From the IMG/VR virus record IMGVR_UViG_3300027126_000001: a stretch of DNA of 64,000 nt; one strand, 5' to 3'. The notes under the pieces were generated by a model that was not told where the DNA came from, ran no database searches, and worked only from the letters and a program-made list of their open reading frames with translations. The DNA is from a virus (lineage: Duplodnaviria; Heunggongvirae; Uroviricota; Caudoviricetes). Below, in pieces: positions 16,843 to 46,391 of this stretch. Numbering within the stretch: the stretch's first letter is position 1; every line of letters starts with the position of its first letter. The translations under genes and the position numbers were made by a program.

Positions 16843-17092
16843 TTATAGTATCTTGTATTTCTTTCATAAAGTTAAAGAAAACTCCGACTTCATCGTCAGA
16901 CCTAAAAGTGCCTTTCTCATCTAATTGTTCAACATAAATTTTTGATTCACTAATAAGATACGCAACCTTTCTTAAATAACCTACTTGGTACTCTATAATA
17001 TCTTCTTGCTTTGTCACCTTACGGTGTAAGTTCCAAGTAGTATATCCGAATACTAAAACCAATATTACTAAAATAACTGTTAATATTATCAT
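16799..17092 (-). CDS. Small membrane protein (N-terminal TM helix)
   Basis: 97 aa beginning MIILTVILVILVLVFGY. Confidence 0.35.
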   Translation of the reverse strand: MIILTVILVILVLVFGYTTWNLHRKVTKQEDIIEYQVGYLRKVAYLISESKIYVEQLDEKGTFRSDDEVGVFFNFMKEIQDTINAYRLPDDYGKTTE

Positions 17093-18100: not shown

Positions 18101-18754
18101 TTACTGCTCAAACACTACTTTTAACTCTTTAACTACTGTCTGCTTATTCTCTCCGAAAGTGACATTAATGTATATAGTTGCTGACTCCCCTATAAAATCT
18201 TCAAAAAACGCCATTGATTGCTGAGGGGTGTAGGTGTATCTGGAATTAGTGCAGAAGTACGACTGTACTACCGACTGATTGGCATAGTAATCTGTATGGG
18301 GTTGAATTGTGTAACCTACTAAATTCATTATGGTAGTCTGTCCTGAAAGTTGCGGAAATGTGTAGGTTTGTGTACCTACTGCGATAGGTGTATCCATTTG
18401 ATTACTTGACCACAACCCTTGGTAGGAATATACAGGGTATGTCCAGGTTACATTTCCCGGCAAGTAGAAGAAATTAGAATCAAAAGATGTAATAACTAAC
18501 GGGACATTGTTAATTACATACCGAGAATCTAAAGGAGATAATTGCCCTTTCACTGTAAAATAGTTTAATCCAGCATGTTTTATATGCCAAACCCCTTGCC
18601 CATCTTGGTAAGTTCCAGGATGCCCTTGAGTATCTACCCAGAAAGTGCCGTAACAATCCCCGGATAAGCACACACTAGGCTCTATTTCAGGAGTGGAACA
18701 ACTAAGTACGAATAAAGAAAGTAATAAAAGGAATAAAGTTTTTAACTGTTTCAT
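18101..18754 (-). CDS. Secreted lipoprotein (start taken at the internal Met)
   Basis: MKQLKTLFLLLLSLFVLSCSTPE is a signal peptide with a lipobox (LSC). The longer ORF to 18808 is probably an over-extension. A degenerate cassette lies at 18775-18820. Confidence 0.5.
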   Translation of the reverse strand: MKQLKTLFLLLLSLFVLSCSTPEIEPSVCLSGDCYGTFWVDTQGHPGTYQDGQGVWHIKHAGLNYFTVKGQLSPLDSRYVINNVPLVITSFDSNFFYLPGNVTWTYPVYSYQGLWSSNQMDTPIAVGTQTYTFPQLSGQTTIMNLVGYTIQPHTDYYANQSVVQSYFCTNSRYTYTPQQSMAFFEDFIGESATIYINVTFGENKQTVVKELKVVFEQ

Positions 18755-18881
18755 AACATTTTTATTTTGATTGTACCTAAATATATGAAGAAAGACGGAG
18801 AGGAGCAACTATTTTATAAGTTATTTTCAAAGAATCGCCGCGCAATTATTTTATATATCCTACCCGGATACCTATTAAGTT

Positions 18882-19586
18882 TTAGTAAATTACGCATTCC
18901 CCAACGGTAAACAATGCACCTACCTCTCGAATCTTATCAAAAGCCTCAAAAGGAGTAACCTTAAAAAATTCTCTTTTACCTCCTCTATCGGAAGAAACCC
19001 TTACAGAACTAAAATGCTTGTGAACGGCCTTCTCCACTTTTAAAGCCGAACCTTTTTTCAAAGGAAGAGCAAATTTTGGAACCCACTCTTCAACCGTAGC
19101 TGTAGCGTTTATTGCCGTGACTCTCCTAGGAACGTCATGAATGGTCATTCCTATCTTAACGAGTGAAGTATACCCGGGATTAACCAGAACGTAAACATAC
19201 TCTATATCATCGGTAGATTTCTCTTTTATCTTAGAATTCTCTATACCGTGGAAATACCTCCAGGAATATGTATTGGTATCTTGATCTACCTGTCCTTCGG
19301 ATACCTCTATAAGGTATCTTGCCGAAAGAAAATCAAGGAGTTTACCTGGGGATATATGTCTGTGTTTGGATTGAAGGGTAGTAAATGCTTCTTTCCATTT
19401 TTTTCCTACCTTGGGGTAGGCTAGAACAGACTCTGGTGAAGAATCAACAATTGTAATCTCTCCTACTAATTCAAGAGACATGGCCTCTGCCATACTTATT
19501 TTATCTCTAAACATAATTGTTTTGAATTTTAGTTGAAAAAATCCCTTACTACTAAGTTGATAACACTCCCTGCAATTATAGGCCAT
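18882..19586 (-). CDS. T5orf172 / GIY-YIG-superfamily domain protein
   Basis: 234 aa. YVYVLVNPGYTSLVKIGMT...RRV matches the T5orf172 (Mug113-like) domain consensus. Confidence 0.45.
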   Translation of the reverse strand: MAYNCRECYQLSSKGFFQLKFKTIMFRDKISMAEAMSLELVGEITIVDSSPESVLAYPKVGKKWKEAFTTLQSKHRHISPGKLLDFLSARYLIEVSEGQVDQDTNTYSWRYFHGIENSKIKEKSTDDIEYVYVLVNPGYTSLVKIGMTIHDVPRRVTAINATATVEEWVPKFALPLKKGSALKVEKAVHKHFSSVRVSSDRGGKREFFKVTPFEAFDKIREVGALFTVGECVIY

Positions 19587-20256: not shown

Positions 20257-20523
20257 ATGAATTTCTGGAAATTATACGGAAAAGGTGATTTGGAATTATT
20301 TATTAGTATGGAAGTATATAAAAACTTTAGCGGGAAATCATCTGTATATGCATATATTATAGGAGCAGATTACATATCCATACAGTTTAAGAATTTAAAA
20401 GTTTACAACTATACATACTCTAGGGCAGGGGCAGGTAATGTAGAGAGAATGAAAACTTTAGCCAAACAGGGGTTGGGGTTGAATACTTTTATTAAGAGGT
20501 ATGTCAATAGTAATTATAGTTAA
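20257..20523 (+). CDS. KTSC-domain protein, the only credible plus-strand gene
   Basis: 88 aa. VYAYIIGADYISIQFKNLKVYNYTYSRAGAGNVERMKTLAKQGLGLNTFIKRY resembles the KTSC domain (xVxFxNGxxYxYxxVPxxxYxxLxxAxSxGxYFNxxIRxxY). Converges on the minus-strand array. Confidence 0.45.
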   Translation: MNFWKLYGKGDLELFISMEVYKNFSGKSSVYAYIIGADYISIQFKNLKVYNYTYSRAGAGNVERMKTLAKQGLGLNTFIKRYVNSNYS

Positions 20524-20582: not shown

Positions 20583-20612
20583 AACCCGAGAGACCCGACT
20601 GTGATACCCGTT
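20583..20612. repeat. Three inverted-orientation copies of the iteron core (ACCCG, the reverse complement of CGGGT), including an exact GATACCCGTT
   Basis: aaACCCGag, agACCCGac and gatACCCGtt at 20584, 20593 and 20606, in the convergent gap between the KTSC gene and the array terminator. Confidence 0.45.
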
Positions 20613-20674: not shown

Positions 20675-20706
20675 ACAAAAAAAAAGAGGCCTAAGCCTCT
20701 TCTTTA
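20675..20706 (-). terminator. Rho-independent terminator of the small-gene array (minus strand)
   Basis: Hairpin AGAGGC-TTAG-GCCTCT (plus 20685-20700) overlapping the TAG stop, followed on the minus strand by a 9-nt U-run (plus A-run 20675-20684). Confidence 0.6.
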
Positions 20707-20966
20707 AATTCTACCAAACTTTCAAATCGATATGTTACTACAACCTTCTTACCCATCACAAAGGTAAATCCAGTAAAACTAACTCTACCTACCCGATCTA
20801 CATTACATTCGTACTCATTTAATACTATTCTACCATCTAAAGAAGATCTTATTTGTCTTGTAATACATTTACCTGCATCCTCTCTATAGGAGTAAGTTGA
20901 ATCTCCTTTGTAAGTTGATTGTCCGATTGTAAAAGGTGTTCCGTTTAAAAATTGTTCTCTTGTCAT
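20691..20966 (-). CDS. Small hypothetical protein (array gene)
   Basis: 91 aa, cassette promoter upstream (20967-21035). Confidence 0.45.
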   Translation of the reverse strand: MTREQFLNGTPFTIGQSTYKGDSTYSYREDAGKCITRQIRSSLDGRIVLNEYECNVDRVGRVSFTGFTFVMGKKVVVTYRFESLVEFKEEA

Positions 20967-21012
20967 AATGTTATCTTGTTTTAATTATTGATACCTAAAT
21001 ATATGAACTATT

Positions 21013-21246
21013 CTAATCAAAGGCAACTATTTTTAAACTATTTTTATCTACTGAGGTTAGTTTATTTTCTATTGTTCTTAAGACTGCTTCATCATTCTGA
21101 TCAAACATCTCTAATAAGACTCCTATAACTCTCTTTCCAAAGAACTTATCTGTGCCTTCATAAACCATTCCAATCATTGGAGAGGAAGTCTTAGCGACTT
21201 TCCTCCCTTTGACCTTCCATGTTCCTTTTAAATCTCCATCACTCAT
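21013..21246 (-). CDS. Small hypothetical protein (array gene)
   Basis: 77 aa. Its last codons contain the AGTTGCC -33 element of the next cassette. Confidence 0.45.
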   Translation of the reverse strand: MSDGDLKGTWKVKGRKVAKTSSPMIGMVYEGTDKFFGKRVIGVLLEMFDQNDEAVLRTIENKLTSVDKNSLKIVAFD

Positions 21247-21443
21247 TAGGATGCCTTTGCTAACTCTTCTTGAACATTCTCTAATGCGATCTTATAGCCA
21301 AAGTTAATAGCCATCTGCATTAAAAGAATATCCATTGAACCATTATTAGCTTTAGCAAATGCTTCAAGATCTTCTCTTGTGTTAGGAGTTGCTACAATAC
21401 CTCTTGATAACATTTTGAACTGCTCTTCGAAAAACTTTTCCAT
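21246..21443 (-). CDS. Small hypothetical protein (array gene)
   Basis: 65 aa, cassette upstream. Confidence 0.4.
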   Translation of the reverse strand: MEKFFEEQFKMLSRGIVATPNTREDLEAFAKANNGSMDILLMQMAINFGYKIALENVQEELAKAS

Positions 21444-21519
21444 AACTTATTTGTTTTAATTATTGATACCTAAATATAAGAACTAACTCTGTAACTAGCA
21501 ACTTTATTTTTAACAGAGA

Positions 21520-21714
21520 TTAATCATAACCTCCGTCTTCTTCTTCATCTCCTTCAATACTTAATTTGTAATTTCCTTTAGCTGTTTCAACAATATCACA
21601 ATCATTTACTTTAATCCAACTACCTCCTCTTCCTGTTTCGATATACGAGAAGAATTTAATCTTTTTGTCTTGATCTAATTTTGATAACTGATCTACTAAT
21701 TCTTTTACTAACAT
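21520..21714 (-). CDS. Small acidic hypothetical protein (array gene)
   Basis: 64 aa, cassette upstream. Confidence 0.4.
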   Translation of the reverse strand: MLVKELVDQLSKLDQDKKIKFFSYIETGRGGSWIKVNDCDIVETAKGNYKLSIEGDEEEDGGYD

Positions 21715-21766
21715 AACTTTTATTGTTTTAATTATTGATACCTAAATATAAGAATTAACTTTGTAA

Positions 21767-22072
21767 CTAACAACTTTCTTCTAACCTTTTTTCTGTAACT
21801 AATGTATAATAAGTTCCTGAATATCCATTAGCAGCAGAGTTGTTTGTAGCTATGTTTAAGCTTGTAATTAATCCTGCTATTGCCTTTGGATTACAATTTA
21901 CCTTTTTATTACCCTTTTCATGTTGCCAAGAAGCCCCACATTCTAAAGTATAACTAAAATACTTTATAAGATATTCTAAAGTACCTTCTGCATAAGAATA
22001 CCTTGTTGGTCTTGATGACATAAATCCTCCATTTCTAGCTATTTCGATAATGAATGTTTTTTCTTTTTTCAT
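21767..22072 (-). CDS. Small hypothetical protein (array gene)
   Basis: 101 aa, cassette upstream. Confidence 0.45.
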   Translation of the reverse strand: MKKEKTFIIEIARNGGFMSSRPTRYSYAEGTLEYLIKYFSYTLECGASWQHEKGNKKVNCNPKAIAGLITSLNIATNNSAANGYSGTYYTLVTEKRLEESC

Positions 22073-22115
22073 GATACTATATGTTTTAATTATTGATACC
22101 TAAAGATAAGAAATA

Positions 22116-22129
22116 GCCCCCGAAGGGGC
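22116..22129 (-). terminator. UUCG-tetraloop GC hairpin inside a cassette (gene-end terminator/insulator); equivalents at 25299-25312, 25627-25640, 26244-26257, 28538-28551 and 38924-38937
   Basis: GCCCC-CGAA-GGGGC on the plus strand, which is GCCCC-UUCG-GGGGC on the transcript, followed by a U-rich tract. The 5' arm retains the AGTTGCC -33 element. Confidence 0.45.
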
Positions 22130-22137
22130 AACTCTTT

Positions 22138-22494
22138 TTACAATTCATTTTCTGCTCTTTCTAGCTCAACTACATCATCTTCTTCAATAGCTTCTCCGAA
22201 GTCCATAAAGTTATTCTCTAAAGCTTCTCTAACATAATCTAAATTCAATCCAATACTTTCTACTTCCAATCTATTATCATAACTGATATTAAATTCAACT
22301 GAAGTATAATCTACAATCTCTTCTGTATTCCTTTCAAAGCTATCGATAACTTTATCAATTGCTCTTTCAATATCATCTACTGAGATTACTCTTCCTCCTC
22401 CTTCAATTGAATTGATAAGATTAATAACATCTTCTTTTGAAAAGATTGAAGATACTGAATTCTGAACTGACTGTAATACTAATTCTTTTTTCAT
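22138..22494 (-). CDS. Small acidic hypothetical protein (array gene)
   Basis: 118 aa, cassette upstream, hairpin terminator downstream. Confidence 0.45.
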   Translation of the reverse strand: MKKELVLQSVQNSVSSIFSKEDVINLINSIEGGGRVISVDDIERAIDKVIDSFERNTEEIVDYTSVEFNISYDNRLEVESIGLNLDYVREALENNFMDFGEAIEEDDVVELERAENEL

Positions 22495-22560
22495 AATGTT
22501 ATATGTTTTAATTATTGATACCTAAATATATGAACTTTAATTGTAACTAGCAACTTTATT
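22495..22560 (-). promoter_or_regulatory. Representative promoter/leader cassette: AGTTGCTAG, 16 nt, TATATTTAGGTATCAATAATTAAAACATATAAnATC, ATG
   Basis: Near-identical copies lie at 20967-21035, 21444-21519, 21715-21766, 22073-22137, 22750-22816, 23201-23264, 23538-23599, 23858-23940, 24776-24840, 25256-25326, 25585-25649, 25947-26033, 26211-26267, 26571-26646, 26869-26931, 27109-27180, 27514-27595, 27764-27822, 28030-28110, 28495-28561, 28838-28910 and 29473-29545. Degenerate copies lie at 18775-18820, 31484-31560, 32935-32991, 35057-35140, 36018-36074, 36450-36486, 37658-37720, 38889-38955, 53348-53387 and 55883-55899. TTG(C), a 19-nt spacer and TAnnTTTAG fit the Bacteroidetes sigma-A -33/-7 promoter geometry. 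Confidence 0.6.
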
Positions 22561-22749
22561 TTAAAAAGATCTTTCCCAATCTCTCTCTTTAACATCATCA
22601 ATAATGTCCGAAAGTACTTGTCCTAACTCTTCATCAAAGTCAACATCATCAATAGATGTTTTGTCTTCTTTGTATTGAGCAATTAATTCATCAATCTCTT
22701 CAATGAATCTTTCTTTAATCAACTTTAATTCTTTAAATGCTTTTGCCAT
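22561..22749 (-). CDS. Small acidic hypothetical protein (array gene)
   Basis: 62 aa, cassette upstream. Confidence 0.4.
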   Translation of the reverse strand: MAKAFKELKLIKERFIEEIDELIAQYKEDKTSIDDVDFDEELGQVLSDIIDDVKERDWERSF

Positions 22750-22816
22750 GATTTTATTTGTTTTAATTATTGATACCTAAATATATGAATTAACTTTATA
22801 ACTAGCAACTATTTTT

Positions 22817-23200
22817 TTAGTTATTTTTAGCAATGTTTCTAAGATTAGTATACCAGTTTATTTGATAATCATCAGCTGTACCGATTAATTGTTTTAACAT
22901 TTGATCTTCCATTCCTACCTTCTCTAGAATGAATTGCATAGTCTCTCCATCTACATCAATCTCTCTTAAAGTATCAATTACTAATTGTACCTTATCTGAA
23001 TGATCAAGATGTATATGATAAGATTTAAAGTAATTATTCTCCCAATTGATGATCATTTGCTTTTCATCCTCTGTAGTGATTGTAGTTTCATTCACATCAA
23101 AGACCTCTATGATATCTGCGAAGTCCAATTCAAATTCATTCTGTGTTCTGTTTGATGCCTCTCTAATAAAGAAGTTGACATCCATAAATTCTTTTGTCAT
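22817..23200 (-). CDS. Small hypothetical protein (array gene)
   Basis: 127 aa, cassette upstream. Confidence 0.45.
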   Translation of the reverse strand: MTKEFMDVNFFIREASNRTQNEFELDFADIIEVFDVNETTITTEDEKQMIINWENNYFKSYHIHLDHSDKVQLVIDTLREIDVDGETMQFILEKVGMEDQMLKQLIGTADDYQINWYTNLRNIAKNN

Positions 23201-23264
23201 AATATATTGTTTTAATTATTGATACCTAAATATATGAACTTTAATTGTAACTAGCAACTTTATT

Positions 23265-23537
23265 TTACTGAGCTTTTTTTATTTCTTTTAAAAATTCCTC
23301 TAACATATCTTCATCTGAATTATGATACCCTAACTGACTGAAGAAGTTAGTTTCTAATTTTGAAATCAAATCTGTGAAAGATTCTATTGAATCAATTTCA
23401 AATAACATTTCCCCAAGATTTGAATAATGATTTCTAAATTCTTCTTTCTCTAAAGGAAGATCATCTGCAAAGATGTTGTACATTTCAATTGCAGATTCTT
23501 TCAATACTTGTTTTGCTGTATATAATAAATTTGACAT
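23265..23537 (-). CDS. Small acidic hypothetical protein (array gene)
   Basis: 90 aa, cassette upstream. Confidence 0.45.
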   Translation of the reverse strand: MSNLLYTAKQVLKESAIEMYNIFADDLPLEKEEFRNHYSNLGEMLFEIDSIESFTDLISKLETNFFSQLGYHNSDEDMLEEFLKEIKKAQ

Positions 23538-23599
23538 AATATATTGTTTTAATTATTGATACCTAAATATATGAACTTTAATTCAATTGAGCAACTTTT

Positions 23600-23857
23600 T
23601 TAAACTAAACATTTAAAAGAAGTTTCAAAATAAACACTACTTTTTACAGCTTGTCTAACAGCATAGATAGCATCCAATAATTCTTCATACTCAAAGACAT
23701 ACATAGGAAGTTTTGTTTGCATATTGCTGATTGAGAAACTTGTCCTGTTGTGGTTAATTAGAGTGTAATCTAAAGTTTCTCCATTTGAGCGTACTTCAAG
23801 ATTTTTTTTATTACCCATGTAATCACTAACTCCGATAACTGCTACTAATTTTGACAT
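23600..23857 (-). CDS. Small hypothetical protein (array gene)
   Basis: 85 aa, cassette upstream. Confidence 0.45.
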   Translation of the reverse strand: MSKLVAVIGVSDYMGNKKNLEVRSNGETLDYTLINHNRTSFSISNMQTKLPMYVFEYEELLDAIYAVRQAVKSSVYFETSFKCLV

Positions 23858-23986
23858 AATATATACTGTTTTAATTATTGATACCTAAATATATGAAATA
23901 GTCTAGTAACTAGCAACTATTTCACAAACTATTTTAACCCAAAAAGGCCCCTAATAGGAGCCCTTTCTTCGATCAATAATTAAAAA

Positions 23987-24775
23987 CTATTCAGCTAAAG
24001 TGTGCTGAACAATATTTTCTCGTAGTCCATAAACTTGATCAATTATAGAACTAACGTTTATATTTTCTTCGCTTGATGTACTACTTCCATGAGCAAAAGT
24101 AAATACTGCAGTACCTTTCTTACCCGACTTAGAAACATCAATCAACTTAATACTAATTACAGTTGGAGTGTAGTTGTATTTCAATTGAATACCTTTTCCT
24201 TTGACAAACTCAACTCCACCATTCTTTAAATCGAATTCAATTTTTTCTCTTTCTATAACTCTAATTAACTCTTGAACTTCTCTAACCTCTCTTCCTACTT
24301 GTTCCATTTCTTTATACACTGCACTATATTCTTCTCTGAAAGAAATCACAGCTTCATTTGCAGCATCAATCATTTTATCTTGATCATTCAAAACAATCTC
24401 TGCTAAATCTCCTAACATTCTTAATCTTTTTAATTCGAAAGAGTCAACTCCTTTTGTAGAAGTAGTATAGTAAGATAAATCAATTCCACTATAACACTTG
24501 TTACTTTTCACTCCATCAAAATTCCAATTCTCTCTTAAATTTAAACTAAATAATTCTTTCTTGTAAGAATAATCTGGATGATCTGCTTTAAAGTAAACAG
24601 ACCCTCTAGTTACTTCAATGTAAGCATAAGGACTAAATCCTGAGAAGAAGGGAAGTAAAGCATCTGAAATTGCTTGTTGCTCTCTTACGTAAATGTCCCC
24701 TCTTTTGTTTTCTATTAATTCTTTTTGAGCTGTAAGGATTGCTTTTTGATCCTCTAATAAACTTAATCTTGTCAT
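23987..24775 (-). CDS. Hypothetical protein, largest gene of the array (262 aa)
   Basis: ORF with a cassette upstream and a GC hairpin downstream. Confidence 0.5.
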   Translation of the reverse strand: MTRLSLLEDQKAILTAQKELIENKRGDIYVREQQAISDALLPFFSGFSPYAYIEVTRGSVYFKADHPDYSYKKELFSLNLRENWNFDGVKSNKCYSGIDLSYYTTSTKGVDSFELKRLRMLGDLAEIVLNDQDKMIDAANEAVISFREEYSAVYKEMEQVGREVREVQELIRVIEREKIEFDLKNGGVEFVKGKGIQLKYNYTPTVISIKLIDVSKSGKKGTAVFTFAHGSSTSSEENINVSSIIDQVYGLRENIVQHTLAE

Positions 24776-24866
24776 AATGTTATATGTTTTAATTATTGAT
24801 ACCTAAATATATGAACTTTAACTTTATGAGGCAACTATTTTAACAATTATTTTTAATTTATTTTGA

Positions 24867-24942
24867 TGTTGTGGAAGGATTCGAACCTTCGTCCTATCGG
24901 CCCCCTCGGACCGATCGCTTTCGCCGCTTCAGCTTCACAACA
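24867..24942 (-). tRNA. tRNA-like element with a canonical acceptor stem and T-arm but a non-canonical anticodon arm
   Basis: Minus strand reads TGTTGTG-AA-GCTG...GAAGG-TTCGAAT-CCTTC-CACAACA-T. A 7-bp acceptor stem, a perfect GGTTCGAATCC T-arm and a D-loop GG are present. The anticodon arm ATCGGT/CCGAGGGG/GCCGAT gives an 8-nt loop, and no CCA is encoded. Downstream lies the hairpin AAGCCC-N8-GGGCTT. Confidence 0.4.
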
Positions 24943-24958
24943 GCTTTATAAGCCCTTT

Positions 24959-25255
24959 TTATAGGGCTTTTAATATTTCTCTCTCAGCATCATTTGAAAC
25001 TGATTTACTTTTTGATCCGATATGCCATGTTACATATTCATCCCTTTCTAACGGACGACCTTCCTTCCAGTCGTAAATACAAAATACTTCCCCTTCATTT
25101 GTTTCCATTTCCCATTCGAAATTCACTTTGTCCTCACCCGTATTATATTCCATGGTCGGCTCTCCGAATGCTGAAATTAATTGATCAACTGTTGCTCGAA
25201 TTACAACTCCGTGAAATGACGTCCCGCTTGTGCTTTGATAAGTTTCTTTTGCCAT
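24959..25255 (-). CDS. Small hypothetical protein (array gene)
   Basis: 98 aa, cassette upstream. Confidence 0.45.
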   Translation of the reverse strand: MAKETYQSTSGTSFHGVVIRATVDQLISAFGEPTMEYNTGEDKVNFEWEMETNEGEVFCIYDWKEGRPLERDEYVTWHIGSKSKSVSNDAEREILKAL

Positions 25256-25326
25256 GATTTTATATGTTTTAATTATTGATATCTAAAGATAAGAAAAAGG
25301 CCCCGAAGGGCCAACCCTTTTGTCAA

Positions 25327-25584
25327 TTATTTTTTAAAAGTTTTTCTATTGGCTGTAAATGAGATAACCTCGTTTAAGTTAACAAATCTGAAGTCTCTTT
25401 TCTGCATATCGTATACAGTTAATAAATTCTTTTCGGAAGGATTGAAAGAATGTCCAACTCCTTTAACTCCTTTTCGTACTCCTCTCATGGCATTCATTTT
25501 TCTAAGACTTCCATCTTTTTTAACAAAAGTTACAGAGAAGATTTTCTTGTTAGCAGTTTCTTGTAATAGATTTTCTACGATCAT
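25327..25584 (-). CDS. Small basic hypothetical protein (array gene)
   Basis: 85 aa, cassette upstream. Confidence 0.45.
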   Translation of the reverse strand: MIVENLLQETANKKIFSVTFVKKDGSLRKMNAMRGVRKGVKGVGHSFNPSEKNLLTVYDMQKRDFRFVNLNEVISFTANRKTFKK

Positions 25585-25649
25585 GATTTTATATGTTTTA
25601 ATTATTGATACCTAAATATAAGAAGAAGCCTCCTAAGAGGCAACTTTTT

Positions 25650-25946
25650 TTAGATATTTTTTATAACTAATTTCAAATAGATTGGACGAATCTTACCACA
25701 CTTTAATCTAGAAGCCCAGCCCTCTTCCTCCAAAGTAGACTGTATATCCTTCACAGATAAGCCTTCTCTATGGAGAGCTACAATTCTAACTTTCATAGAA
25801 TCCTCTTTTGATTTCTTCTCTACAGTAGCTCCTTTAATATGTTTTTCAACAAGTGCTTGAAGATCTTCAGTCTTCATCATATGAGCTGGTTTAGTAGTTT
25901 GAACATTTAAACTTTTTACTTGAGCAATTAATTCTGATCTTGTCAT
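25650..25946 (-). CDS. Small hypothetical protein (array gene)
   Basis: 98 aa, cassette upstream. Confidence 0.45.
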   Translation of the reverse strand: MTRSELIAQVKSLNVQTTKPAHMMKTEDLQALVEKHIKGATVEKKSKEDSMKVRIVALHREGLSVKDIQSTLEEEGWASRLKCGKIRPIYLKLVIKNI

Positions 25947-26033
25947 GATTTTATATGTTTTAATTATTGATACCTAAATATATGAACTTAACTAATACGA
26001 AACAACTTTTTTAACAATTATTTTTAATTAGAA

Positions 26034-26210
26034 GTAATCTTTTTTACTGTATAAGACATTCCGTAATAACTCTTCTCTCCAGGAGATAATGCTGCTCTTC
26101 TTCTTTTAGCATAGGCCTTAGCCTCTTCATGATTTTCAAATTCAGCAACTACTTTGCTAATTGTACCGATATACCCTCCCTTTTGAATAACCTGTGTCAT
26201 GATTTTATAT
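26034..26210 (-). CDS. Small hypothetical protein (58 aa), below the ORF-track cutoff
   Basis: ATG at 26210-26208. Translates to MTQVIQKGGYIGTISKVVAEFENHEEAKAYAKRRRAALSPGEKSYYGMSYTVKKITSN. A full cassette with a UUCG hairpin lies upstream (26211-26265). Confidence 0.4.
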
Positions 26211-26267
26211 GTTTTAATTATTGATATCTAAAGATAAGAAATAGCCCCCGAAGGGGCAACTATTTTA

Positions 26268-26570
26268 CTAGTTATTTTTCAAAAAGTTTTCTTTAACAGA
26301 AGTTGGAACATAATAACGATATAGATTTCTACTATCGTTTTTCTTTTTCCATAGAAATCTTTTATACAAACCTTTTTGAAGTCCACGTCTTAACATGTCG
26401 GCATATTTTTTATTCGATTCCCAAGTTTCATTTCTGTAATAGTCAAAAACTTGTTCCTGAATTTCAGATTCTGTTCGAAATGGTTTTTCGATTAAAAAGT
26501 TTACAATTTCATTTACTGAACGATAAGGTTGGTCAAAACCTTTACCTAATAACATACTTGAATAACCCAT
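26268..26570 (-). CDS. Small basic hypothetical protein (array gene)
   Basis: 100 aa, cassette upstream. Confidence 0.45.
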   Translation of the reverse strand: MGYSSMLLGKGFDQPYRSVNEIVNFLIEKPFRTESEIQEQVFDYYRNETWESNKKYADMLRRGLQKGLYKRFLWKKKNDSRNLYRYYVPTSVKENFLKNN

Positions 26571-26646
26571 AGTTTATATTGTTTTAATTATTGATACCTA
26601 AATATATGAACTATTCTTTAAACGAGCAACTTTTTATACAACTTTT

Positions 26647-26868
26647 TTAGTTAAAGTATTCTGTATACAAATCATTATTTAAACCCTCTTCTAAAAATTC
26701 AGTCAAACTCCAATCAAAATAATTTGAGATATCTGAACTTAAAGTTTCTTCTAATTCCTCTAAATTAATATCTTTTTTTAATTTTAGATCAAAACCCTTA
26801 CCTGCATCTTCAAGAGCATTAACTAAATCCTCTTTACTAATTTCAAATGTAATTTTTACTGTACTCAT
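26647..26868 (-). CDS. Small acidic hypothetical protein (array gene)
   Basis: 73 aa, cassette upstream. Confidence 0.4.
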   Translation of the reverse strand: MSTVKITFEISKEDLVNALEDAGKGFDLKLKKDINLEELEETLSSDISNYFDWSLTEFLEEGLNNDLYTEYFN

Positions 26869-26931
26869 TTTTATATGTTTTAATTATTAATACCTAAATA
26901 TATGAACTATTATTTTAGTAGGCAACTTTTT

Positions 26932-27108
26932 TTACAACTTTTTTAAAAAATAAAGTTGATAGTCACAAATTAGATTTATAACGTCATCTTCTTCTAACTC
27001 TCCAAATTCTTCTTCATAGTTAGATATGATATTTTCTAAGTAGTCAAAATCTTCAACTTCACTTCTAGTTAGCTTATGTGCATCTAACCATTTAAAAACT
27101 TGCTCTTT
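26932..27108 (-). CDS. Small acidic hypothetical protein (58 aa), not in the ORF track
   Basis: ATG 27108-27106. Translates to MKEQVFKWLDAHKLTRSEVEDFDYLENIISNYEEEFGELEEDDVINLICDYQLYFLKKL. A cassette lies upstream (27109-27180). Confidence 0.4.
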   Translation of the reverse strand, partial: KEQVFKWLDAHKLTRSEVEDFDYLENIISNYEEEFGELEEDDVINLICDYQLYFLKKL

Positions 27109-27318
27109 CATAACTTTTATTGTTTTAATTATTGATACCTAAATATATGAACTTAACTAATACGAAGCAACTTTTTTTACAACTAATTTAAAGAAAGATT
27201 TGCTTGGGCCATTCTAACAACTAATTCCTGAGGATTAAATGACATATAAGAAACTCCTCCTAGATTTACTTCGTAATAAGTAACTCCTAATAATACTACT
27301 TTTTTCATATACTTTTTA

Positions 27319-27513
27319 TTATAAGTTCTCTAAAAATTCTTCATTATCTTCATCATTTATCCATTCATCAAAATTTATTTCAAATTGATTGTAAGGATGT
27401 TGAGTAATTTCTCCTAAGTATTCTAAAAATACTTTTTTTGTTTGTTCTTCATTCCAACCACATTCTAAACATGTACGAATGATTCCTTCTGGGATGTTAA
27501 TTGTAACTTGCAT
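27319..27513 (-). CDS. Small acidic hypothetical protein (array gene)
   Basis: 64 aa, cassette upstream. A possible co-transcribed 41-aa ORF follows at 27187-27309. Confidence 0.4.
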   Translation of the reverse strand: MQVTINIPEGIIRTCLECGWNEEQTKKVFLEYLGEITQHPYNQFEINFDEWINDEDNEEFLENL

Positions 27514-27595
27514 AACTCTTATTGTTTTAATTATTGATACCTAAATATAGTTAAAAGAAAGGGAACTAGCAACTAATTCCCTAACTTTTCTTAAC

Positions 27596-27763
27596 TTATC
27601 TTACTTCCAATATATCTAACACAACATCCTCCCTCTCTAATTCCTCTAAAGCTTCTATCCCATCTTCTACAAACAATTCCTCTTTTAAGAAAGTATCAAC
27701 TTTCTCTATACTATCAAAAACTTCAGCAACTGCTCCATCTATACTTAAAATAAATACCTTCAT
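27596..27763 (-). CDS. Small acidic hypothetical protein (55 aa), not in the ORF track
   Basis: ATG 27763-27761. Translates to MKVFILSIDGAVAEVFDSIEKVDTFLKEELFVEDGIEALEELEREDVVLDILEVR. A cassette lies upstream (27764-27840). Confidence 0.4.
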   Translation of the reverse strand: MKVFILSIDGAVAEVFDSIEKVDTFLKEELFVEDGIEALEELEREDVVLDILEVR

Positions 27764-27822
27764 AATTTTATATTTTTTAATTATTAATACCTAAATATAA
27801 GAACTCTTTTTTAATCTAGCAA

Positions 27823-28029
27823 CTATTTTTTAATAAAATCACAACTTTTTTCTTCAAACCAAGCTTTATTCGTTTCATTGGTATAAGGAAAAGTAGTAAC
27901 ACTAAACCCATGAATAAGAGCAATTGGCTCAAATCCTTCGGCTAAATAACCTTGATAAACTTTACCATTTTGATCGGCTGAGGAAAGTTTAGACTCTCCC
28001 GTCTTTGCATTGTACAAAAATACTTTCAT
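27823..28029 (-). CDS. Small hypothetical protein (array gene)
   Basis: 68 aa, cassette upstream. Confidence 0.4.
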   Translation of the reverse strand: MKVFLYNAKTGESKLSSADQNGKVYQGYLAEGFEPIALIHGFSVTTFPYTNETNKAWFEEKSCDFIKK

Positions 28030-28110
28030 CTTTTATATTGTTTTAATTATTAATACCTAAATATAGGAAAAAGGATTGTAACTAACAACCCTTTCCCCAT
28101 TTATTTTTAA

Positions 28111-28494
28111 TTATTTTTCTAAACCATTTATAACAAAAACTTTATCTGCCCAAGTCTTAGCATTGACTGCCTTGTATTGATTGTGATCCATTAGATTTGT
28201 ATTGTAGAATAAAGAATTGATTGTTCCTACCTCTATAGTCTCAGCTATCCTCTCATCCAATAAGATAACCTTTGTGCCCTTCTTAGCAAATACTGTTGTC
28301 CAATGGCTAGTTCCTTCAGCTTTAAACTGGATAGTCTGAAGAGCTCCTTTCTTCCATCTATCAAGAGAAGGTATATCAGACCCTATTTCAGCTGCTATCA
28401 TAAAGCCTGCTGGTACTTTTGTAATGGCCTGGAAGATACCTTTTCTACCTCCGATGAAATCTACTACTGTTAATCCTTTAATTTTGTTTACCAT
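28111..28494 (-). CDS. Small hypothetical protein (array gene)
   Basis: 127 aa, cassette upstream. Confidence 0.45.
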   Translation of the reverse strand: MVNKIKGLTVVDFIGGRKGIFQAITKVPAGFMIAAEIGSDIPSLDRWKKGALQTIQFKAEGTSHWTTVFAKKGTKVILLDERIAETIEVGTINSLFYNTNLMDHNQYKAVNAKTWADKVFVINGLEK

Positions 28495-28561
28495 GATATA
28501 TGTCGTTTTAATTATTGATACCTAAAGATAATGAATTGGCCCCGAAGGGCCAACCCTTTTG

Positions 28562-28837
28562 TTAATTATTTAAGTAATTAGCTTTGTAATTTGTTACTAT
28601 TACCTCAAATTGAGCTAGACAATCTACAGCTGATTTACCTTTTAAGCCATAGTATTGTTTTAGATCTTTTAATTTAACCCCTCTACAGCTTAATCCTTTT
28701 GACATTAATTTAAGGTTAAAATGATGAACTGATAATTGATAACCAAAGTAATTAACATTACCATTAGGAGTTGATACTGTAGGAGTGTTTAAAGTTCCTT
28801 CCTGTGCTGCTGTAAGAGCTTGTTCAAATTGTGTCAT
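28562..28837 (-). CDS. Small hypothetical protein (array gene)
   Basis: 91 aa, cassette upstream. Confidence 0.45.
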   Translation of the reverse strand: MTQFEQALTAAQEGTLNTPTVSTPNGNVNYFGYQLSVHHFNLKLMSKGLSCRGVKLKDLKQYYGLKGKSAVDCLAQFEVIVTNYKANYLNN

Positions 28838-28970
28838 AATATACTATGTTTTAATTATTGATACCTAAAGATAGTAAATTATCTAATACGAGGCAACTTT
28901 TATTCCATATTATTTTCCTATTAAAACAAATACTGCCATAGATAAAATATATTAAAAAACTTTGTGAATT

Positions 28971-29010
28971 AGTTGCTAGATAGAATCATTCTTCGTATCT
29001 TTAGGTATGT
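28971..29010 (+). promoter_or_regulatory. Plus-strand copy of the cassette promoter (AGTTGCTAG, 16 nt, TATCTTTAGGTATG) with no ORF downstream
   Basis: The -33-like 9-mer is identical and the spacing to the -7-like TAnnTTTAGGTAT box is the same as in the ~25 minus-strand cassettes. It points rightward into a GC-rich non-coding stretch that ends at the 29117-29145 terminator. Confidence 0.5.
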
Positions 29011-29011
29011 T

Positions 29012-29156
29012 AGAAGGGAATAAAGGGCCTGGCACTGAAAGACTGTCGGAAGAGTAGACGGTCCGGTACGCCTATTTCTGTAGTTGGTAATACCTAGTAC
29101 CTGGTGGTAAAAAAAGAAGGGCCCTGTTGGGAGCCCTTTTTCTTATGCTTGTCTTT
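29012..29156 (+). ncRNA. Candidate ~140-nt small RNA (promoter-to-terminator unit on the otherwise empty plus strand)
   Basis: Bounded by the plus-strand cassette promoter and the hairpin AAGGGC-N10-GCCCTT followed by TTTTTC. GC content is far above the surroundings (GGGCCTGGCAC...GACGGTCCGGTACGCC). Only a 16-codon ORF is possible. Confidence 0.4.
29109..29145. terminator. Bidirectional rho-independent terminator
   Basis: An A-run (29110-29115), then a GC hairpin (29117-29138), then a T-run (29137-29141). Confidence 0.55.
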
Positions 29157-29262
29157 TCTGTCGTAGGTCTTTTTGCTCTTATACACCTTGTGCTGGGAGG
29201 CTGCCCATCTCTCCTGGAGAGTTACCTGAATTGTTTTCATTACTTGCTGAGGTTTGTTTCTA

Positions 29263-29472
29263 TTAAATATCCTCTTCTAGGAAGAAAGGGTCCCCTGAGG
29301 TATCAAATGTAATAAATCCTTCTCTATTAGTATAATAGTCATTAGGTCCAGTACTCATAAAGAATAGAGTTTCTTCCTCATCATTCCTCCCTACATAGTG
29401 AGCTTTATTTCCTCTCTTATCCAAAGTATATTCAACCCCTACAACTAAATCATCTCTTTCAATTTCTCTCAT
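29263..29472 (-). CDS. Small hypothetical protein (last array gene)
   Basis: 69 aa, cassette upstream (29473-29545). Confidence 0.45.
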   Translation of the reverse strand: MREIERDDLVVGVEYTLDKRGNKAHYVGRNDEEETLFFMSTGPNDYYTNREGFITFDTSGDPFFLEEDI

Positions 29473-29574
29473 ATCGTATATGTTTTTAATTATCTATACC
29501 TAAAGATAAGAACCATTGGCCATATAAGCAACTTTTTTATAGGCTTTTTTTACCCCCGGAGGGGGACAGGAAAC

Positions 29575-29730
29575 GGGTAACTAGAACGGGTCTCAACCGG
29601 GTCTCTTAACGGGTCACTAGACGGGTAACAAAACGGGTATCTAAATCGGGTATCTCCTTACACTCTGCATTATCTGCCTATAGGGACAGGTACCAAACGG
29701 GTATCTGAAATGGGTATCTGCTTACACTAT
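29575..29730. repeat. Iteron array A: ~9 direct copies of (A)ACGGGT(A/C), spaced 11-13 bp
   Basis: cgggt occurs at 29583, 29595, 29606, 29619, 29630, 29642, 29655, 29706 and 29720. Two copies of the longer unit GGGACAGGnAAACGGGTA and two copies of GGGTATCTSCTTACACT are also present. Confidence 0.7.
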
Positions 29731-30002
29731 ATAGGATAGTTTCTTCCTATTATAGAAAAAAACTATTAGGGAGACACATACCCCTCATTTTACCTATCCT
29801 TATTCTACCATCCCTTCTCTATCGTTTTACACATCGTATATACTATACAGTACCTTTTCATACCTACTACCATATGTCTTTATACTCTTTACTAGGTTTT
29901 ACTACTCTTTATGTTTAATCAGAGTCCTTAACCTTTTACTATGTATCTCAGCAGTTCTCCCTATGTCTCTCCTTATATCTCTCCAGCTCTATATGTATGT
30001 AT

Positions 30003-30095
30003 ATTCGGGTAATAGGCCGGGACAGAAACGGGTAATTGAATGGGTATCAAATGGGTATCGGACCGGGTTTGTAGACGGGTCTCTTAACGGGTTTC
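30003..30095. repeat. Iteron array B: ~8 direct copies of the same (A)ACGGGT motif, same orientation as array A
   Basis: cgggt/tgggt occurs at 30006, 30029, 30042, 30053, 30064, 30076 and 30088, and GGCCGGGACAGAAACGGGTA recurs. The two arrays are separated by a ~270-bp tract that is C/T-rich on the plus strand. Confidence 0.7.
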
Positions 30096-30151
30096 TATAT
30101 AATATTCTCTATAGGATTGTCCATTGTCCTTATAACGTCTTCTTTATTATC

Positions 30152-30427
30152 CTATATAGTATTCTTATCTATTATATTGCTGGAGATATTATTTCTTTCT
30201 ATAGTACTTACCCCCTCTACGGATACTCTCTTTATTCTTATTTGCCAAACTTCTTTTACTCTTATGTATCCATTCTCGTCTGGCTTACCTACATACTTTA
30301 GTAAGGCCATATGACTATTCTTTTTTACTAGAGTGAATGTCTTTGGATCATAGTAGTCTCTAAGGGTAATAATATAACCTATCCTTCTACATATTCTCCA
30401 ATATAGATTTCCTATTAGCTTTTTCAT
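30152..30427 (-). CDS. Small basic hypothetical protein
   Basis: 91 aa; its stop overlaps the next gene's start. Confidence 0.4.
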   Translation of the reverse strand: MKKLIGNLYWRICRRIGYIITLRDYYDPKTFTLVKKNSHMALLKYVGKPDENGYIRVKEVWQIRIKRVSVEGVSTIERNNISSNIIDKNTI

Positions 30428-30618: not shown

Positions 30619-30774
30619 CTTGTATAACTAAATAAGGTTTATCATTCTCTGTCTTTTTTATTGTACCCCTTTGTATTAATTCCTGAGTACCTTGAGGATC
30701 TTTCTGAGACATTATTAGGATTGTCTCCTCCATGTAAATTACTTTCATACTACTTTTATTTAGCTTTTTAACCT

Positions 30775-30855
30775 CCTACAACTCGGAGGGTTGGGAGAAT
30801 TTGCGCGTGACACCTTCGGTAAGGAGAGAGAAGCGCCCCCTCCTTCCCTAAGTCT
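30775..30855. other. GC-rich nested-stem element in an AT-rich intergenic region
   Basis: CCTCC-N8-GGAGG, then GGAGGG[..GCGC[..CCTT-CGGT-AAGG..]GCGC.]CCCTCC. No ORF is present. Confidence 0.35.
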
Positions 30856-30961
30856 CTAGATTGAATCAATCTGTTCCTGTGTTAAACTATCTCTCCATTC
30901 TTGTACATACTTCTCATCTTCGTCAAGTAGTGCCTGTAATTCTTCTTCTGTCATAACTTAT

Positions 30962-31483: not shown

Positions 31484-31570
31484 AACCTTTATTATTTTTA
31501 ATTATACCTAAATATACGAAAAAAGAGCTGCGCTAGCAACTCTTTTATTAATTATTTTTAAAATATTTTA

Positions 31571-32934: not shown

Positions 32935-32991
32935 AACTTATTTGTTTTTATTATTATACCTAAATATACGAATAATATTGTTAGGAGGCAA

Positions 32992-33342
32992 CTATTTTAG
33001 CCCTAATTTTTTTCTTTTCCAATTTTCTTTTGGACCTATTGCAAACATATCATCAATTCTTTTCTTATTTTTGCTCCATATAGGAATAACACCTACATAT
33101 TCTATATAGTAAGGAAATAACCAATGAATTCTCCAAGATTTTTCTATATTTTTCTTTAAGTATTTTGGTTGTATTCTATAACAATACTCTGATTGATATA
33201 CCTCGTACTCATCTGATATCTTATTTAGATATTCTTCTAAAAGATTGTCATTAAGTATACCTTTGTTTTCAAGAATGAAAAAACTTGACAATATAACTGT
33301 TAATATAACTGCTAGAATTGTTAAAATTAATAAAAATACCAT
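32992..33342 (-). CDS. Small membrane protein
   Basis: 116 aa, N-terminal TM. Confidence 0.4.
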   Translation of the reverse strand: MVFLLILTILAVILTVILSSFFILENKGILNDNLLEEYLNKISDEYEVYQSEYCYRIQPKYLKKNIEKSWRIHWLFPYYIEYVGVIPIWSKNKKRIDDMFAIGPKENWKRKKLGLK

Positions 33343-35056: not shown

Positions 35057-35140
35057 AACTTATTGTTTTTAATTGATTTCTATACCTAAAGATATGAATA
35101 AAGATTTATACTAGCAACTAATCTACAAACTTTTTTTAAT

Positions 35141-36017: not shown

Positions 36018-36074
36018 AACCTTTATTTTTTTATTTAACTAAATATACGAATAAAATCTCTACCAGGCAACTTT

Positions 36075-36449: not shown

Positions 36450-36486
36450 AACCTTTATCTTCTTATTTATACCTAAATATATGAAC

Positions 36487-37035
36487 TTAATTTCTATTCT
36501 GCAACAGATTTAATAATTTATTTACATCACCTATCATTATTTTTTTGTGAAGCTCTCCTTGTATCTCTCTTGTGTAGTGGTATCCATCAGGATCAAGGGA
36601 CTCTACAGGCTTCCCTAAGATATCGCTAACCAGTGTGTTGGGTATTGGTACTCCACCTTTTTTAAGCATTATATGTTCCATTGCACCTGAGAATTCTCCC
36701 CAAGCTCTGTTCATCTTAACATCCTCTTGGCTCATCTTCATTAGTCCTTCCTTTCCTTGCATGCTTCCATCTGTTCCTGCTGCAATAGATTTTCTTCCTA
36801 GTTCATCCTTGTAGATCTTTATTGCTACAATTTTACCATCTCTTCTTACAAGTTTAGCCAATCCTGTCTTGTTAATTAAATCCTCTTTAGATTTTGCAGA
36901 TTTGAATCCTCCTATGGATGCATAGCTTTTCTGCAACATATCCCAGATCTCGTCAATGTATGGAACTAGTTGTTGGTCTGTGTGTAAGTTTATATATCTC
37001 TCAAACAATATGTTTGCAATAGTTAATTGTTTCAT
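36487..37035 (-). CDS. Hypothetical protein
   Basis: 182 aa. Confidence 0.4.
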   Translation of the reverse strand: MKQLTIANILFERYINLHTDQQLVPYIDEIWDMLQKSYASIGGFKSAKSKEDLINKTGLAKLVRRDGKIVAIKIYKDELGRKSIAAGTDGSMQGKEGLMKMSQEDVKMNRAWGEFSGAMEHIMLKKGGVPIPNTLVSDILGKPVESLDPDGYHYTREIQGELHKKIMIGDVNKLLNLLQNRN

Positions 37036-37657: not shown

Positions 37658-37817
37658 TATAATTTTTCTATACCTAAATATATGAATATGTATTCATATA
37701 AGCAACTACTTTTTAAACAATTTAAAAAAATCTGTACTTATATTTTTCTCTCTTAATTTTTCATTCAACTCATGCTGTTTGACTAATTGATTGGCAACTA
37801 TTCTTTCTCTGGAAGGT

Positions 37818-38888: not shown

Positions 38889-38955
38889 AACCGTTTTTAT
38901 TTATTAATTATATCTAAAGATATGAAATTGCCTCCGAAGAGGCAACTTTTATCTA

Positions 38956-41894: not shown

Positions 41895-41895
41895 A

Positions 41896-42432: not shown

Positions 42433-42441
42433 ATCTCTATA

Positions 42442-44018: not shown

Positions 44019-44019
44019 T

Positions 44020-45500: not shown

Positions 45501-45540
45501 TATTATTTTATCTTTTATTAATATACGAAATACTCTTCTA

Positions 45541-46386: not shown

Positions 46387-46391
46387 ATAAT

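Follow-up and report, generated by a model that had tools for sequence, protein, structure and literature searches.

Between positions 20691 and 29532 of IMGVR_UViG_3300027126_000001, a 64,000-nucleotide stretch of phage DNA (hereafter the window), a block of small open reading frames (ORFs) is punctuated by near-identical repeats, almost every ORF being preceded by one. These repeats are probably composite regulatory cassettes, the Bacteroidota counterpart of the promoter-early stem-loops (PeSLs) of T4-type phages, which would both drive and shuffle a block of ORFans. Comparison between related phages shows that the invariant core of the cassette, TAT(A/C)TTTAGGTATCAATAATTAAAAC with GTTG 20 nt upstream, also acts as portable recombination homology. 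The window comes from a T4-like Flavobacterium myovirus, with every gene on the minus strand, and is kin to vB_FspM_immuto (hereafter immuto), a 160-kb myovirus with annotated T4-like portal (gp20), capsid (gp23), prohead protease and baseplate genes. It is collinear with immuto 43.7-100 kb, genes flanking the array share 50-95% amino-acid identity, and immuto carries the same cassettes in a syntenic array.

The 18-mer GGTATCAATAATTAAAAC, which lies in the leader, is found 23 times at ≤3 mismatches (16 exact), always on the minus strand and between 20978 and 29500; dinucleotide-preserving shuffles give an expectation of 0.29. These 23 class-I copies bear out the initial annotation, which had counted more than 22 strong ones. 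The profile scan of the copies that it had suggested, combined with a regular expression, recovered 31 minus-strand copies of TTG-N20-TAT(A/C)TTTAG between 18.8 and 38.9 kb. The spacer is 20 nt long in 31/31, the base preceding TTG is G, not T, and in all 31 the ATG of an ORF follows 16-29 nt downstream. For the class-I copies this distance is 25-28 nt, and exactly 27 nt in 17 of the 23. A repeat finder, run independently, grouped 19 copies, 245-918 nt apart, into a single family of 85-98 nt. Within the interval are 26 ORFs of 41-262 amino acids (aa), not the approximately 28 mini-genes first proposed. A cassette of its own precedes 23 of them, and the other three are second cistrons without one (21013-21246, 27183-27308 and 29094-29240).

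About ten diverged copies had also been reported outside the array. Eight of these, at 18.8, 31.5, 33.0, 35.1, 36.07, 36.5, 37.7 and 38.9 kb, share the same -33 and -7 elements and have other leaders; the copy at 55.9 kb keeps the GTTG-N20-TAnnTTTA core and ends in TTTAA, and that at 53.4 kb is degenerate (nhmmer E 0.003). Weaker TTTA[T/C] variants occur at 19.78, 4.65 and 0.08 kb, and the promoter part alone is found once on the plus strand, at 28972-29004. The 31 minus-strand cassettes are listed in Table 1.

The exact cassette 22-mer is present in 58 IMG/VR stretches, contigs of 150-167 kb among them. Among the genomes of 185,579 species it occurs in a single 3.3-kb contig of a metagenome-assembled genome (MAG) bin, which we take to be phage-derived, and a host origin of the cassette was rejected on this distribution. 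Among cultured phages, the cassette and the small RNA described below are confined to four immuto records.

A logo built from the window copies and 375 distinct copies from IMG/VR loci gives the order of the elements: two upstream A-tracts over the preceding stop codon, GTTGc, the 20-nt spacer, TAT(A/C)TTTAG, GTATCAATAATTAAAAC, ~10 variable A/T-rich nt and ATG, for a promoter-plus-leader unit of ~90 nt. Apart from its end, TTC(A/T), the spacer is free in sequence, and the conserved positions are exactly those of the -33 element, the -7 element and the translation determinants. We read the unit as six consecutive parts: (i) an A-rich tract overlapping the stop codon of the preceding gene; (ii) the putative -33 element GTTG; (iii) the 20-nt spacer, which in about a quarter of copies forms a G+C hairpin with a T-run that could terminate or attenuate incoming transcription; (iv) the putative -7 element TAT(A/C)TTTA; (v) a predicted start site ~4-6 nt beyond it, inside GGTAT; and (vi) a predicted unstructured leader of ~23 nt without a Shine-Dalgarno sequence, in which the invariant TTAAAAC sets A at -12 to -15, with A usually also at -3 and -6. 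Host RNA polymerase with its primary sigma factor would fire at each cassette soon after injection, so that each mini-gene would receive the same strong transcription and translation signal. Transcripts would run as far as the next cassette with a hairpin, and the resulting mRNAs would be nested and mono- to oligocistronic.

Table 1. Cassettes and associated features in the window. Class-I coordinates run from GTTG to the base before ATG.
Feature	Position	Strand	Associated gene or remark
Hyperplastic array, 26 small ORFs (41-262 aa) and 23 class-I cassettes	20691..29532	-	12 ORFs with immuto orthologues
Class-I cassette	20967..21027	-	ORF 20691-20966
Class-I cassette	21444..21502	-	bicistron 21246-21443 + 21013-21246
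Class-I cassette	21715..21774	-	ORF 21520-21714
Class-I cassette, GCCCCTTCGGGGGC hairpin and T-run in spacer	22073..22132	-	ORF 21767-22072
Class-I cassette	22495..22554	-	ORF 22138-22494
Class-I cassette	22750..22809	-	ORF 22561-22749
Class-I cassette	23201..23258	-	ORF 22817-23200
Class-I cassette	23538..23595	-	ORF 23265-23537 (protein with phiST homologue)
Class-I cassette	23858..23917	-	ORF 23600-23857
Class-I cassette	24776..24835	-	ORF 23987-24775
Class-I cassette, GGCCCTTCGGGGCC hairpin in spacer	25256..25315	-	ORF 24959-25255
Class-I cassette, GCCTCTTAGGAGGC hairpin in spacer	25585..25644	-	ORF 25327-25584
Class-I cassette	25947..26006	-	ORF 25650-25946
Class-I cassette, GCCCCTTCGGGGGC hairpin in spacer	26201..26260	-	ORF 26024-26200
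Class-I cassette	26571..26630	-	ORF 26268-26570
Class-I cassette	26869..26926	-	ORF 26647-26868
Class-I cassette	27112..27171	-	ORF 26932-27111
Class-I cassette	27514..27573	-	bicistron 27319-27513 + 27183-27308
Class-I cassette	27764..27823	-	ORF 27596-27763
Class-I cassette, stem-loop overlapping -33 element	28030..28089	-	ORF 27823-28029
Class-I cassette, GGTTGGCCCTTCGGGGCCAATT hairpin (-17.5 kcal/mol)	28495..28554	-	ORF 28111-28494
Class-I cassette	28838..28897	-	ORF 28562-28837
Class-I cassette, 3 leader mismatches	29473..29532	-	29263-29472 + 29094-29240
Diverged cassette (same -33/-7, other leader)	18755..18809	-	ORF 18101-18754
Diverged cassette, hairpin in spacer	31484..31540	-	
Diverged cassette	32935..32992	-	ORF 32443-32934
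Class-II cassette (leader GGTATAGAAATCAATTAAAAA)	35057..35118	-	DUF932 gene 34232-35056
Diverged cassette	36018..36071	-	ORF 35688-36017
Diverged cassette	36450..36505	-	ORF 36075-36449
Diverged cassette	37658..37706	-	UPF0227 alpha/beta hydrolase gene 37055-37657
Diverged cassette, hairpin in spacer	38889..38946	-	ORF 38484-38888
Promoter part only, GTTG-N20-TATCTTTAG	28972..29004	+	points away from array; kept in immuto and many IMG/VR loci
Candidate small structured RNA	29005..29140	+	ends at bidirectional terminator 29117-29138
Putative hairpin terminator closing the array	20684..20701	.	after ORF 20691-20966

Flavobacterium primary-sigma promoters have the form -33 TTTG / -7 TAnnTTTG, in which T-12, A-11, T-8, T-7, T-6 and G-5 are nearly invariant and transcription starts ~5 nt further on (PMC6847099; PMC9723704); the median 5' untranslated region (5'UTR) of F. 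psychrophilum is 24 nt. The cassette fits this host consensus with TA at -12/-11 and TTT at -8 to -6 (TAT(A/C)TTT in 31/31), and the TTG of its -33 element stands exactly 20 nt from the -7 box in every one of the 31 copies. It departs from the consensus at -5, where 31 of 33 gene-proximal sites in the window have A and none has the G of the host, and at -33, which is GTTG in 32 of the 33. No canonical TAnnTTTG promoter precedes any gene in the window. The sigma-A geometry recognized in the initial annotation thus stands for TTG, TA and TTT, with the corrections that the box is TAnnTTTA(G), not TTTG, and that the spacer measures 20 nt. Sigma-70-type sites are not enriched (90 found versus 89.7 expected); the cassettes are not -35/-10 promoters, and that identity was rejected. 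A candidate late promoter, ATATTTATA, stands before some other genes; it was dropped as a second class for want of enrichment (7 found versus 4.7 expected).

Could these departures reflect promoters of phage-directed specificity, read through a sigma-like factor that the phage encodes or its virion delivers, a sigma appropriator or a modified host polymerase, and forming a middle-type rather than an immediate-early class? The systematic A at -5, repeated in 28 of 29 immuto sites, the GTTG at -33 and the lack of any canonical TAHHTTTG before a window gene would all fit. We nevertheless consider this unlikely. Three sister phage lineages, located via the small RNA, carry analogous arrays with canonical TTG-N20-TA(T/A)(A/C)TTTG at the homologous position, in the same geometry, and in them a canonical TTTG box also precedes the same small RNA; their leaders are lineage-specific but related (...GTAATCAAAACAAC... 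or CATCAGTAATAATTAAAAC). Apart from a doubtful 100-aa 'subunit N', the immuto annotation lists neither a sigma factor nor an RNA polymerase, and Pfam matched none in window 17.1-20.2 and 23.99-59.6 kb or among the mini-ORFs. Cellulophaga phage phiST uses the same box variants yet shares few genes with immuto, and, were this the sole promoter class, some genes would still need unaided host polymerase at the start of infection. Given the canonical boxes at homologous positions in the sister lineages, the cassette appears to belong to the normal Bacteroidota phage promoter class as a systematic variant of it, with start sites and timing that are predicted.

The variant boxes form part of a wider pattern. 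Bacteroidota phages use two coupled promoter 'dialects': GTTG with TAnnTTTA, accompanied by full G replacement, and TTTG with TAnnTTTG, in phiSM and the three IMG/VR lineages. The counts refer to gene-proximal promoter-like sites, as they do for the window, where the base after TAnnTTT is the -5 base given above. In immuto, whose DNA has 100% fdPreQ1 in place of G (PMC10516641), 24/29 sites have GTTG at -33 and 28/29 have A after TAnnTTT. The corresponding figures are 14/16 and 13/16 for phiST (100% dDG). Cellulophaga phage phiSM, from the same host strain as phiST and with ~0.4% of its nucleotides modified, has TTTG in 3/3 and a following G in 3/3, and the three IMG/VR lineages have TTTG in 19/24 and G in 24/24. 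At cassette-ascertained IMG/VR loci with GTTG-N20-TAHHTTT, the next base is A and never G, likewise in the window and immuto. Phage 11b, with no annotated dpdA, is canonical in its -7 boxes (TATATTTG), and the control phages phi39:1 and FCL-2 have too few promoter-like sites to inform.

A contig near-identical to the window, IMGVR_UViG_3300046003_006038, carries dpdA. The 80 dpdA matches listed include at least seven TTTA-type contigs, that one and six others; none of the three TTTG-type contigs is among them, such non-listing being no evidence of absence. phiST and immuto share only the deazaguanine synthesis proteins QueD, QueE and FolE, a ribonucleotide reductase, a phosphoribosyltransferase-like protein and one mini-protein. 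We tentatively suggest that the GTTG-N20-TAnnTTTA form may be an adaptation to DNA in which a 7-deazaguanine derivative stands in for every G: should sigma-A read the N7 of the purine at -5, adenine would be the sole purine with an N7 left in such DNA. We offer this link as a hypothesis because the sample holds two fully modified lineages. If it is true, the cassettes would offer a natural setting in which to study the reading of hypermodified DNA by a host polymerase, and genome modification could be predictable from promoter sequence. The deviation from the host consensus, common to a second fully substituted phage, makes the connection between hypermodification and promoter recognition testable.

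Downstream of the promoter boxes, the leader has the properties expected of Flavobacterium translation initiation. With the A of ATG numbered 0, A occupies positions -12, -13, -14, -15, -3 and -6 in 96, 100, 87, 83, 78 and 61% of array copies, respectively, against 68, 48, 65, 45, 43 and 52% at other window genes. Predicted folding energy from -23 to +20 averages -0.55 kcal/mol in the array versus -1.61 kcal/mol at other genes, so the leader should be essentially unstructured. It lacks a Shine-Dalgarno sequence, and its invariant TTAAAAC contains TAAAA, described as a Flavobacterium ribosome-binding motif. Adenines at -3, -6, -12 and -13 promote expression in F. johnsoniae, where replacing -14 to -11 lowers it by 60-90% (PMC6847099; PMC9723704). 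A Shine-Dalgarno-free leader, as first proposed, agrees with all of these features. The plus-strand promoter of the small RNA keeps the -33 element, the -7 element and GGTAT and lacks CAATAATTAAAAC, which makes the leader separable from the promoter; it looks like an mRNA-level module rather than a part of promoter recognition.

The same separability can be turned to another account, already raised in the initial annotation, in which GGTATCAATAATTAAAAC would, besides the promoter function, be mainly the site of a single phage regulator that silences the whole block, either a DNA repressor or a RegA/RegB-like repressor or endoribonuclease acting on mRNA. About 11 nt (GGTATCAATAA) are conserved beyond known promoter and translation determinants, which leaves room for such a site. 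In addition, the core is invariant across phages that have diverged at synonymous sites, and the segment is dispensable for initiation if the small-RNA promoter works without it. Against this, no candidate regulator was identified. The part of the leader conserved across lineages with different -7 boxes is approximately an A-rich (A/T)TNAAAAC, for which translation accounts, and in class-II cassettes ATCAAT is shifted with respect to the start site, an ill fit for a DNA operator over +1. We regard a regulator site as the main function of the leader as rather doubtful.

Part of the cassettes may also end transcription. In 8-9 of the 31 cassettes the spacer forms a G+C hairpin with a T-run after it (e.g., GCCCCTTCGGGGGC-TATTTCTT), eight spacers fold at ≤ -9 kcal/mol, and in some cassettes the -33 element is itself part of the hairpin stem. 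Terminator-like sites in the region number 26, versus 5.9 ± 3.1 expected, several of them within cassette spacers. Because only this minority carries a terminator-like hairpin, read-through and nested transcripts are likely at the array. The block had been described as monocistronic, which is supported in part; with the remaining cassettes lacking a hairpin, transcripts are probably often polycistronic.

The cassettes are also where mini-gene content changes between related phages. About 12 of the 26 mini-genes have immuto orthologues, mostly collinear. Across the 12 shared genes, pooled synonymous divergence (pS) is 0.36 and dN/dS is 0.37, which marks them as genuine genes that purifying selection maintains. 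Immuto has identical cassettes, and the core is invariant despite this substantial neutral divergence. Blocks of nucleotide homology between the window and immuto start and stop within cassettes: before orthologous genes, the two phages agree in all 10 gene-proximal nt of the leader and disagree at 12-14 of the 20 spacer positions, and the foreign spacer turns up before a different gene in the other phage, so the crossovers fell in the invariant core. A similar pattern is seen against IMGVR_UViG_3300046003_006038, a 167-kb contig that is 97.5% identical to the window overall and 99.3% in the left flank. It is without window segments 21506-22077, 22575-23186 and 26026-26868, each amounting to approximately two to three mini-genes, and at each junction the coordinates of this relative overlap by exactly one cassette. 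It also has 526 extra bp at window 24889-24944. Since the junctions of mini-gene insertion, deletion and replacement lie inside cassettes, the block is a hyperplastic region of fast-turnover ORFans.

At the point of the 526-bp insertion, between two mini-genes, lies a tRNA-like element (window 24865-24942, minus strand) with an acceptor stem and a canonical T-arm (GGTTCGAATCC). ARAGORN gives it a 4-base anticodon (gagg), and its fold z-score is -2.9.

In the initial annotation, a recombination or homing site would have counted against a promoter. We instead hold the recombination role in addition to the promoter function, with the gain, loss and replacement junctions inside cassettes as its evidence. 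It is very improbable that the repeats are primarily mobile or recombination elements with no promoter role, whether similar to miniature inverted-repeat transposable elements, homing sites or integron-type attachment sites, even with indel and replacement junctions in the repeats and an HNH endonuclease homologue nearby (annotation of the immuto orthologue of 37818-38483). The copies share one orientation and a fixed distance to the start codon, conservation is confined to promoter and translation determinants while the spacer is free, the flanks hold no Pfam integrase or transposase, and a copy of the promoter part would drive a non-coding RNA in many phages. Integron, transposon and own-sigma or own-RNA-polymerase explanations were set aside, no such domains being found among the window genes scanned.

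Half of the mini-proteins that the array encodes are acidic (13/26 with pI ≤ 4.8, 12 of these ≤ 4.6), consistent with the earlier description of many as strongly acidic. No paralogy was seen among the 26. Pfam matched four families only, in one protein each and without known function, WYL_2 alone falling below E 1e-3, and PHROGs likewise matched four families only, one protein each and without known function. The acidic mini-protein of 23265-23537 (minus strand) is matched, at 35% identity, by a homologue from the phiST early region (HQ634192, 76075-76371), whose gene sits behind a GTTG-N20-TATCTTTA promoter of the same kind as in the array. This homologue, in an unrelated Cellulophaga siphovirus and behind the same kind of promoter, suggests that mini-genes are exchanged across phage families.

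The plus-strand cassette led us to a conserved small RNA candidate (29005-29140), which runs for ~130 nt after the promoter to a bidirectional terminator. Its core, GGGCCUG-P1 hairpin-CGGAAGAGUAGAC (29025-29059), is found in 67 IMG/VR stretches from several phage lineages. The promoter in front of it follows the type used in each lineage, being TTTAG or TTTG in Bacteroidota-type contigs and, judged by eye, resembling a sigma-70 extended -10 box in others. Covariation supports helix P1, with 89.6% of cells paired, 44 cells showing double changes versus 11 ± 3 after shuffling (0/500 shuffles reach the observed number), and a covariation score of 0.435 versus ≤0.109 in slid controls. A single structure for the 3' half was rejected, as it falls into three sequence classes without consistent pairing, and only P1 is supported. 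Searched over the full window, Rfam yielded nothing at gathering threshold, and at E ≤ 1 the small RNA and five related loci gave no match save one terminator-like chance match; immuto annotates the region as a 33-aa hypothetical protein. A conserved small RNA with no Rfam entry thus appears to be present in many large phages. In many relatives, including immuto (16790-16870 of its compared piece), 3-8 tandem 18-nt units, ACTTAAAG-NNNN-GCTTTA, come after the small RNA; the window has none. Each unit is a small hairpin or palindrome and copy number differs between phages; the units could be a protein-binding or decoy array.

Several other elements surround the array. At its upstream edge, ~600 bp of non-coding sequence (29560-30160, minus strand) are dense in iteron-like (G/A)(A/T)(A/T)ACCC(G/A)TT repeats (ACCCGTT 8 versus 2.3 expected), with one more copy at 20606-20612. 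Conserved in immuto and at other loci too, this region is a candidate replication origin or regulator-binding array. A G+C-rich, structured-looking non-coding stretch lies between small ORFs at 30770-30870 (minus strand), with no Rfam match at E ≤ 1. On the strand opposite to the array genes, an ORF of 88 aa (20257-20523, plus) lies within a 494-bp gap just downstream of the array, and the immuto array likewise holds a small opposite-strand gene. Domain-bearing genes nearby on the minus strand encode SPFH/Band 7 (31571-32407), T5orf172/MUG113 (18882-19586) and UPF0227 hydrolase (37055-37657) proteins; no cassette was identified directly upstream of the SPFH and T5orf172 genes. Further along, 39901-59641 (minus strand) is a ~20-kb nucleotide-sugar and glycan synthesis island encoding GDP-mannose 4,6-dehydratase, several epimerases, a DegT aminotransferase, GT1/GT2/GT10/GT11 glycosyltransferases and DUF5672. 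For the inner part of the island (41.1-58.2 kb), tblastn gave no match in the immuto parts compared, immuto 50.0-58.6 kb lying outside the comparison.

Several points weigh against reading the repeats as PeSL-like cassettes. The -7 box has A for the near-invariant G of the host and the -33 element is GTTG for TTTG, which makes recognition by unmodified host sigma-A uncertain. The hairpin is present in a minority of cassettes (8-9/31), so the 'stem-loop' half of the PeSL definition applies to few of them. The invariance of GGTATCAATAA, upstream of TTAAAAC, is unaccounted for by known promoter and translation determinants, and gene conversion (concerted evolution) could help to keep the copies of one genome alike. 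What is said here of promoter activity, start sites, timing and termination is predicted from the DNA itself.

So, how do the cassettes compare with known systems? Direct, oriented repeats placed as promoters, with no recombinase domain encoded in the flanking genes, are unlike an integron cassette array, in which a tyrosine-recombinase integrase is adjacent and the attC sites are imperfect inverted repeats downstream of ORFs. The SPO1 host-takeover module comprises many small early genes, each or nearly each with a strong host-type promoter. The T4 early promoters (PMC2988021) also precede many small early genes without known function, each or nearly each with its own strong host-type promoter; the promoters of T4 and SPO1 are similar but not near-identical over ~60 nt, and have no shared leader. 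In halovirus HF2 (PMC8707807), near-identical intergenic repeat families were proposed, and then shown, to be promoters, in that case of archaeal architecture in an archaeal virus. Bacteroidota primary-sigma promoters and Flavobacterium initiation regions (PMC6847099; PMC9723704) are alike in TA at -12/-11, TTT at -8 to -6, TTG ~20 nt upstream, a predicted 5'UTR of ~23 nt, A at -3, -6, -12 and -13, and TAAAA. The cassettes differ from host promoters in A-5 rather than G, GTTG rather than TTTG, and an identity among copies far above that of host promoters.

The closest resemblance is to the PeSLs of RB49/phi1, T4/PST and KVP40/nt-1 (PMC2839356; PMC4122927). PeSLs are short composite intergenic cassettes that have a strong host-type early promoter with an AT-rich upstream tract and end at the start codon, with a stem-loop terminator that can lie between the promoter boxes or overlap one; hairpins between the boxes are included in the PeSL definition (PMC2839356). 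The present cassettes are likewise composite, intergenic and bounded by the start codon; they have an upstream A-tract and the -33/-7 geometry of the host phylum except for G-5, and 8-9 of the 31 have the hairpin. They are concentrated in hyperplastic regions upstream of ORFans, as are the 23 cassettes and 26 ORFs here, and cassette-bounded indels and replacements between close relatives are the pattern that defines RB49/phi1 modular shuffling. The carrier is again a T4-like myovirus, judging by the gp20 and gp23 homologues annotated in immuto. The differences are a Bacteroidota -33/-7 promoter with a 20-nt spacer in place of sigma-70 -35/-10, an invariant 17-18-nt A/U-rich leader without a Shine-Dalgarno sequence at a fixed distance from ATG, a hairpin in approximately one quarter of copies, and -7 and -33 elements that depart systematically from the host consensus (TTTA, GTTG). 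Mini-circles are a PeSL feature, and the promoter and terminator of the present cassettes are predicted from sequence.

All structural and evolutionary hallmarks of PeSLs appear to be present, except that hairpins are in the minority, and activity is predicted. The T4-type PeSL principle is already known; the promoter type, the invariant Shine-Dalgarno-free leader and the deviant boxes would be new, and the literature searched contains no account of such cassettes in Bacteroidota phages. The cassette is a well-defined and very strong candidate promoter and leader for Flavobacterium genetics, and the 26 small proteins of this fast-turnover block, half of them acidic, are candidates for host-takeover or anti-defence functions. 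The use of a portable promoter-terminator unit to express and shuffle accessory genes would then reach from the T4-type phages of Proteobacteria and cyanobacteria to those of Bacteroidota.

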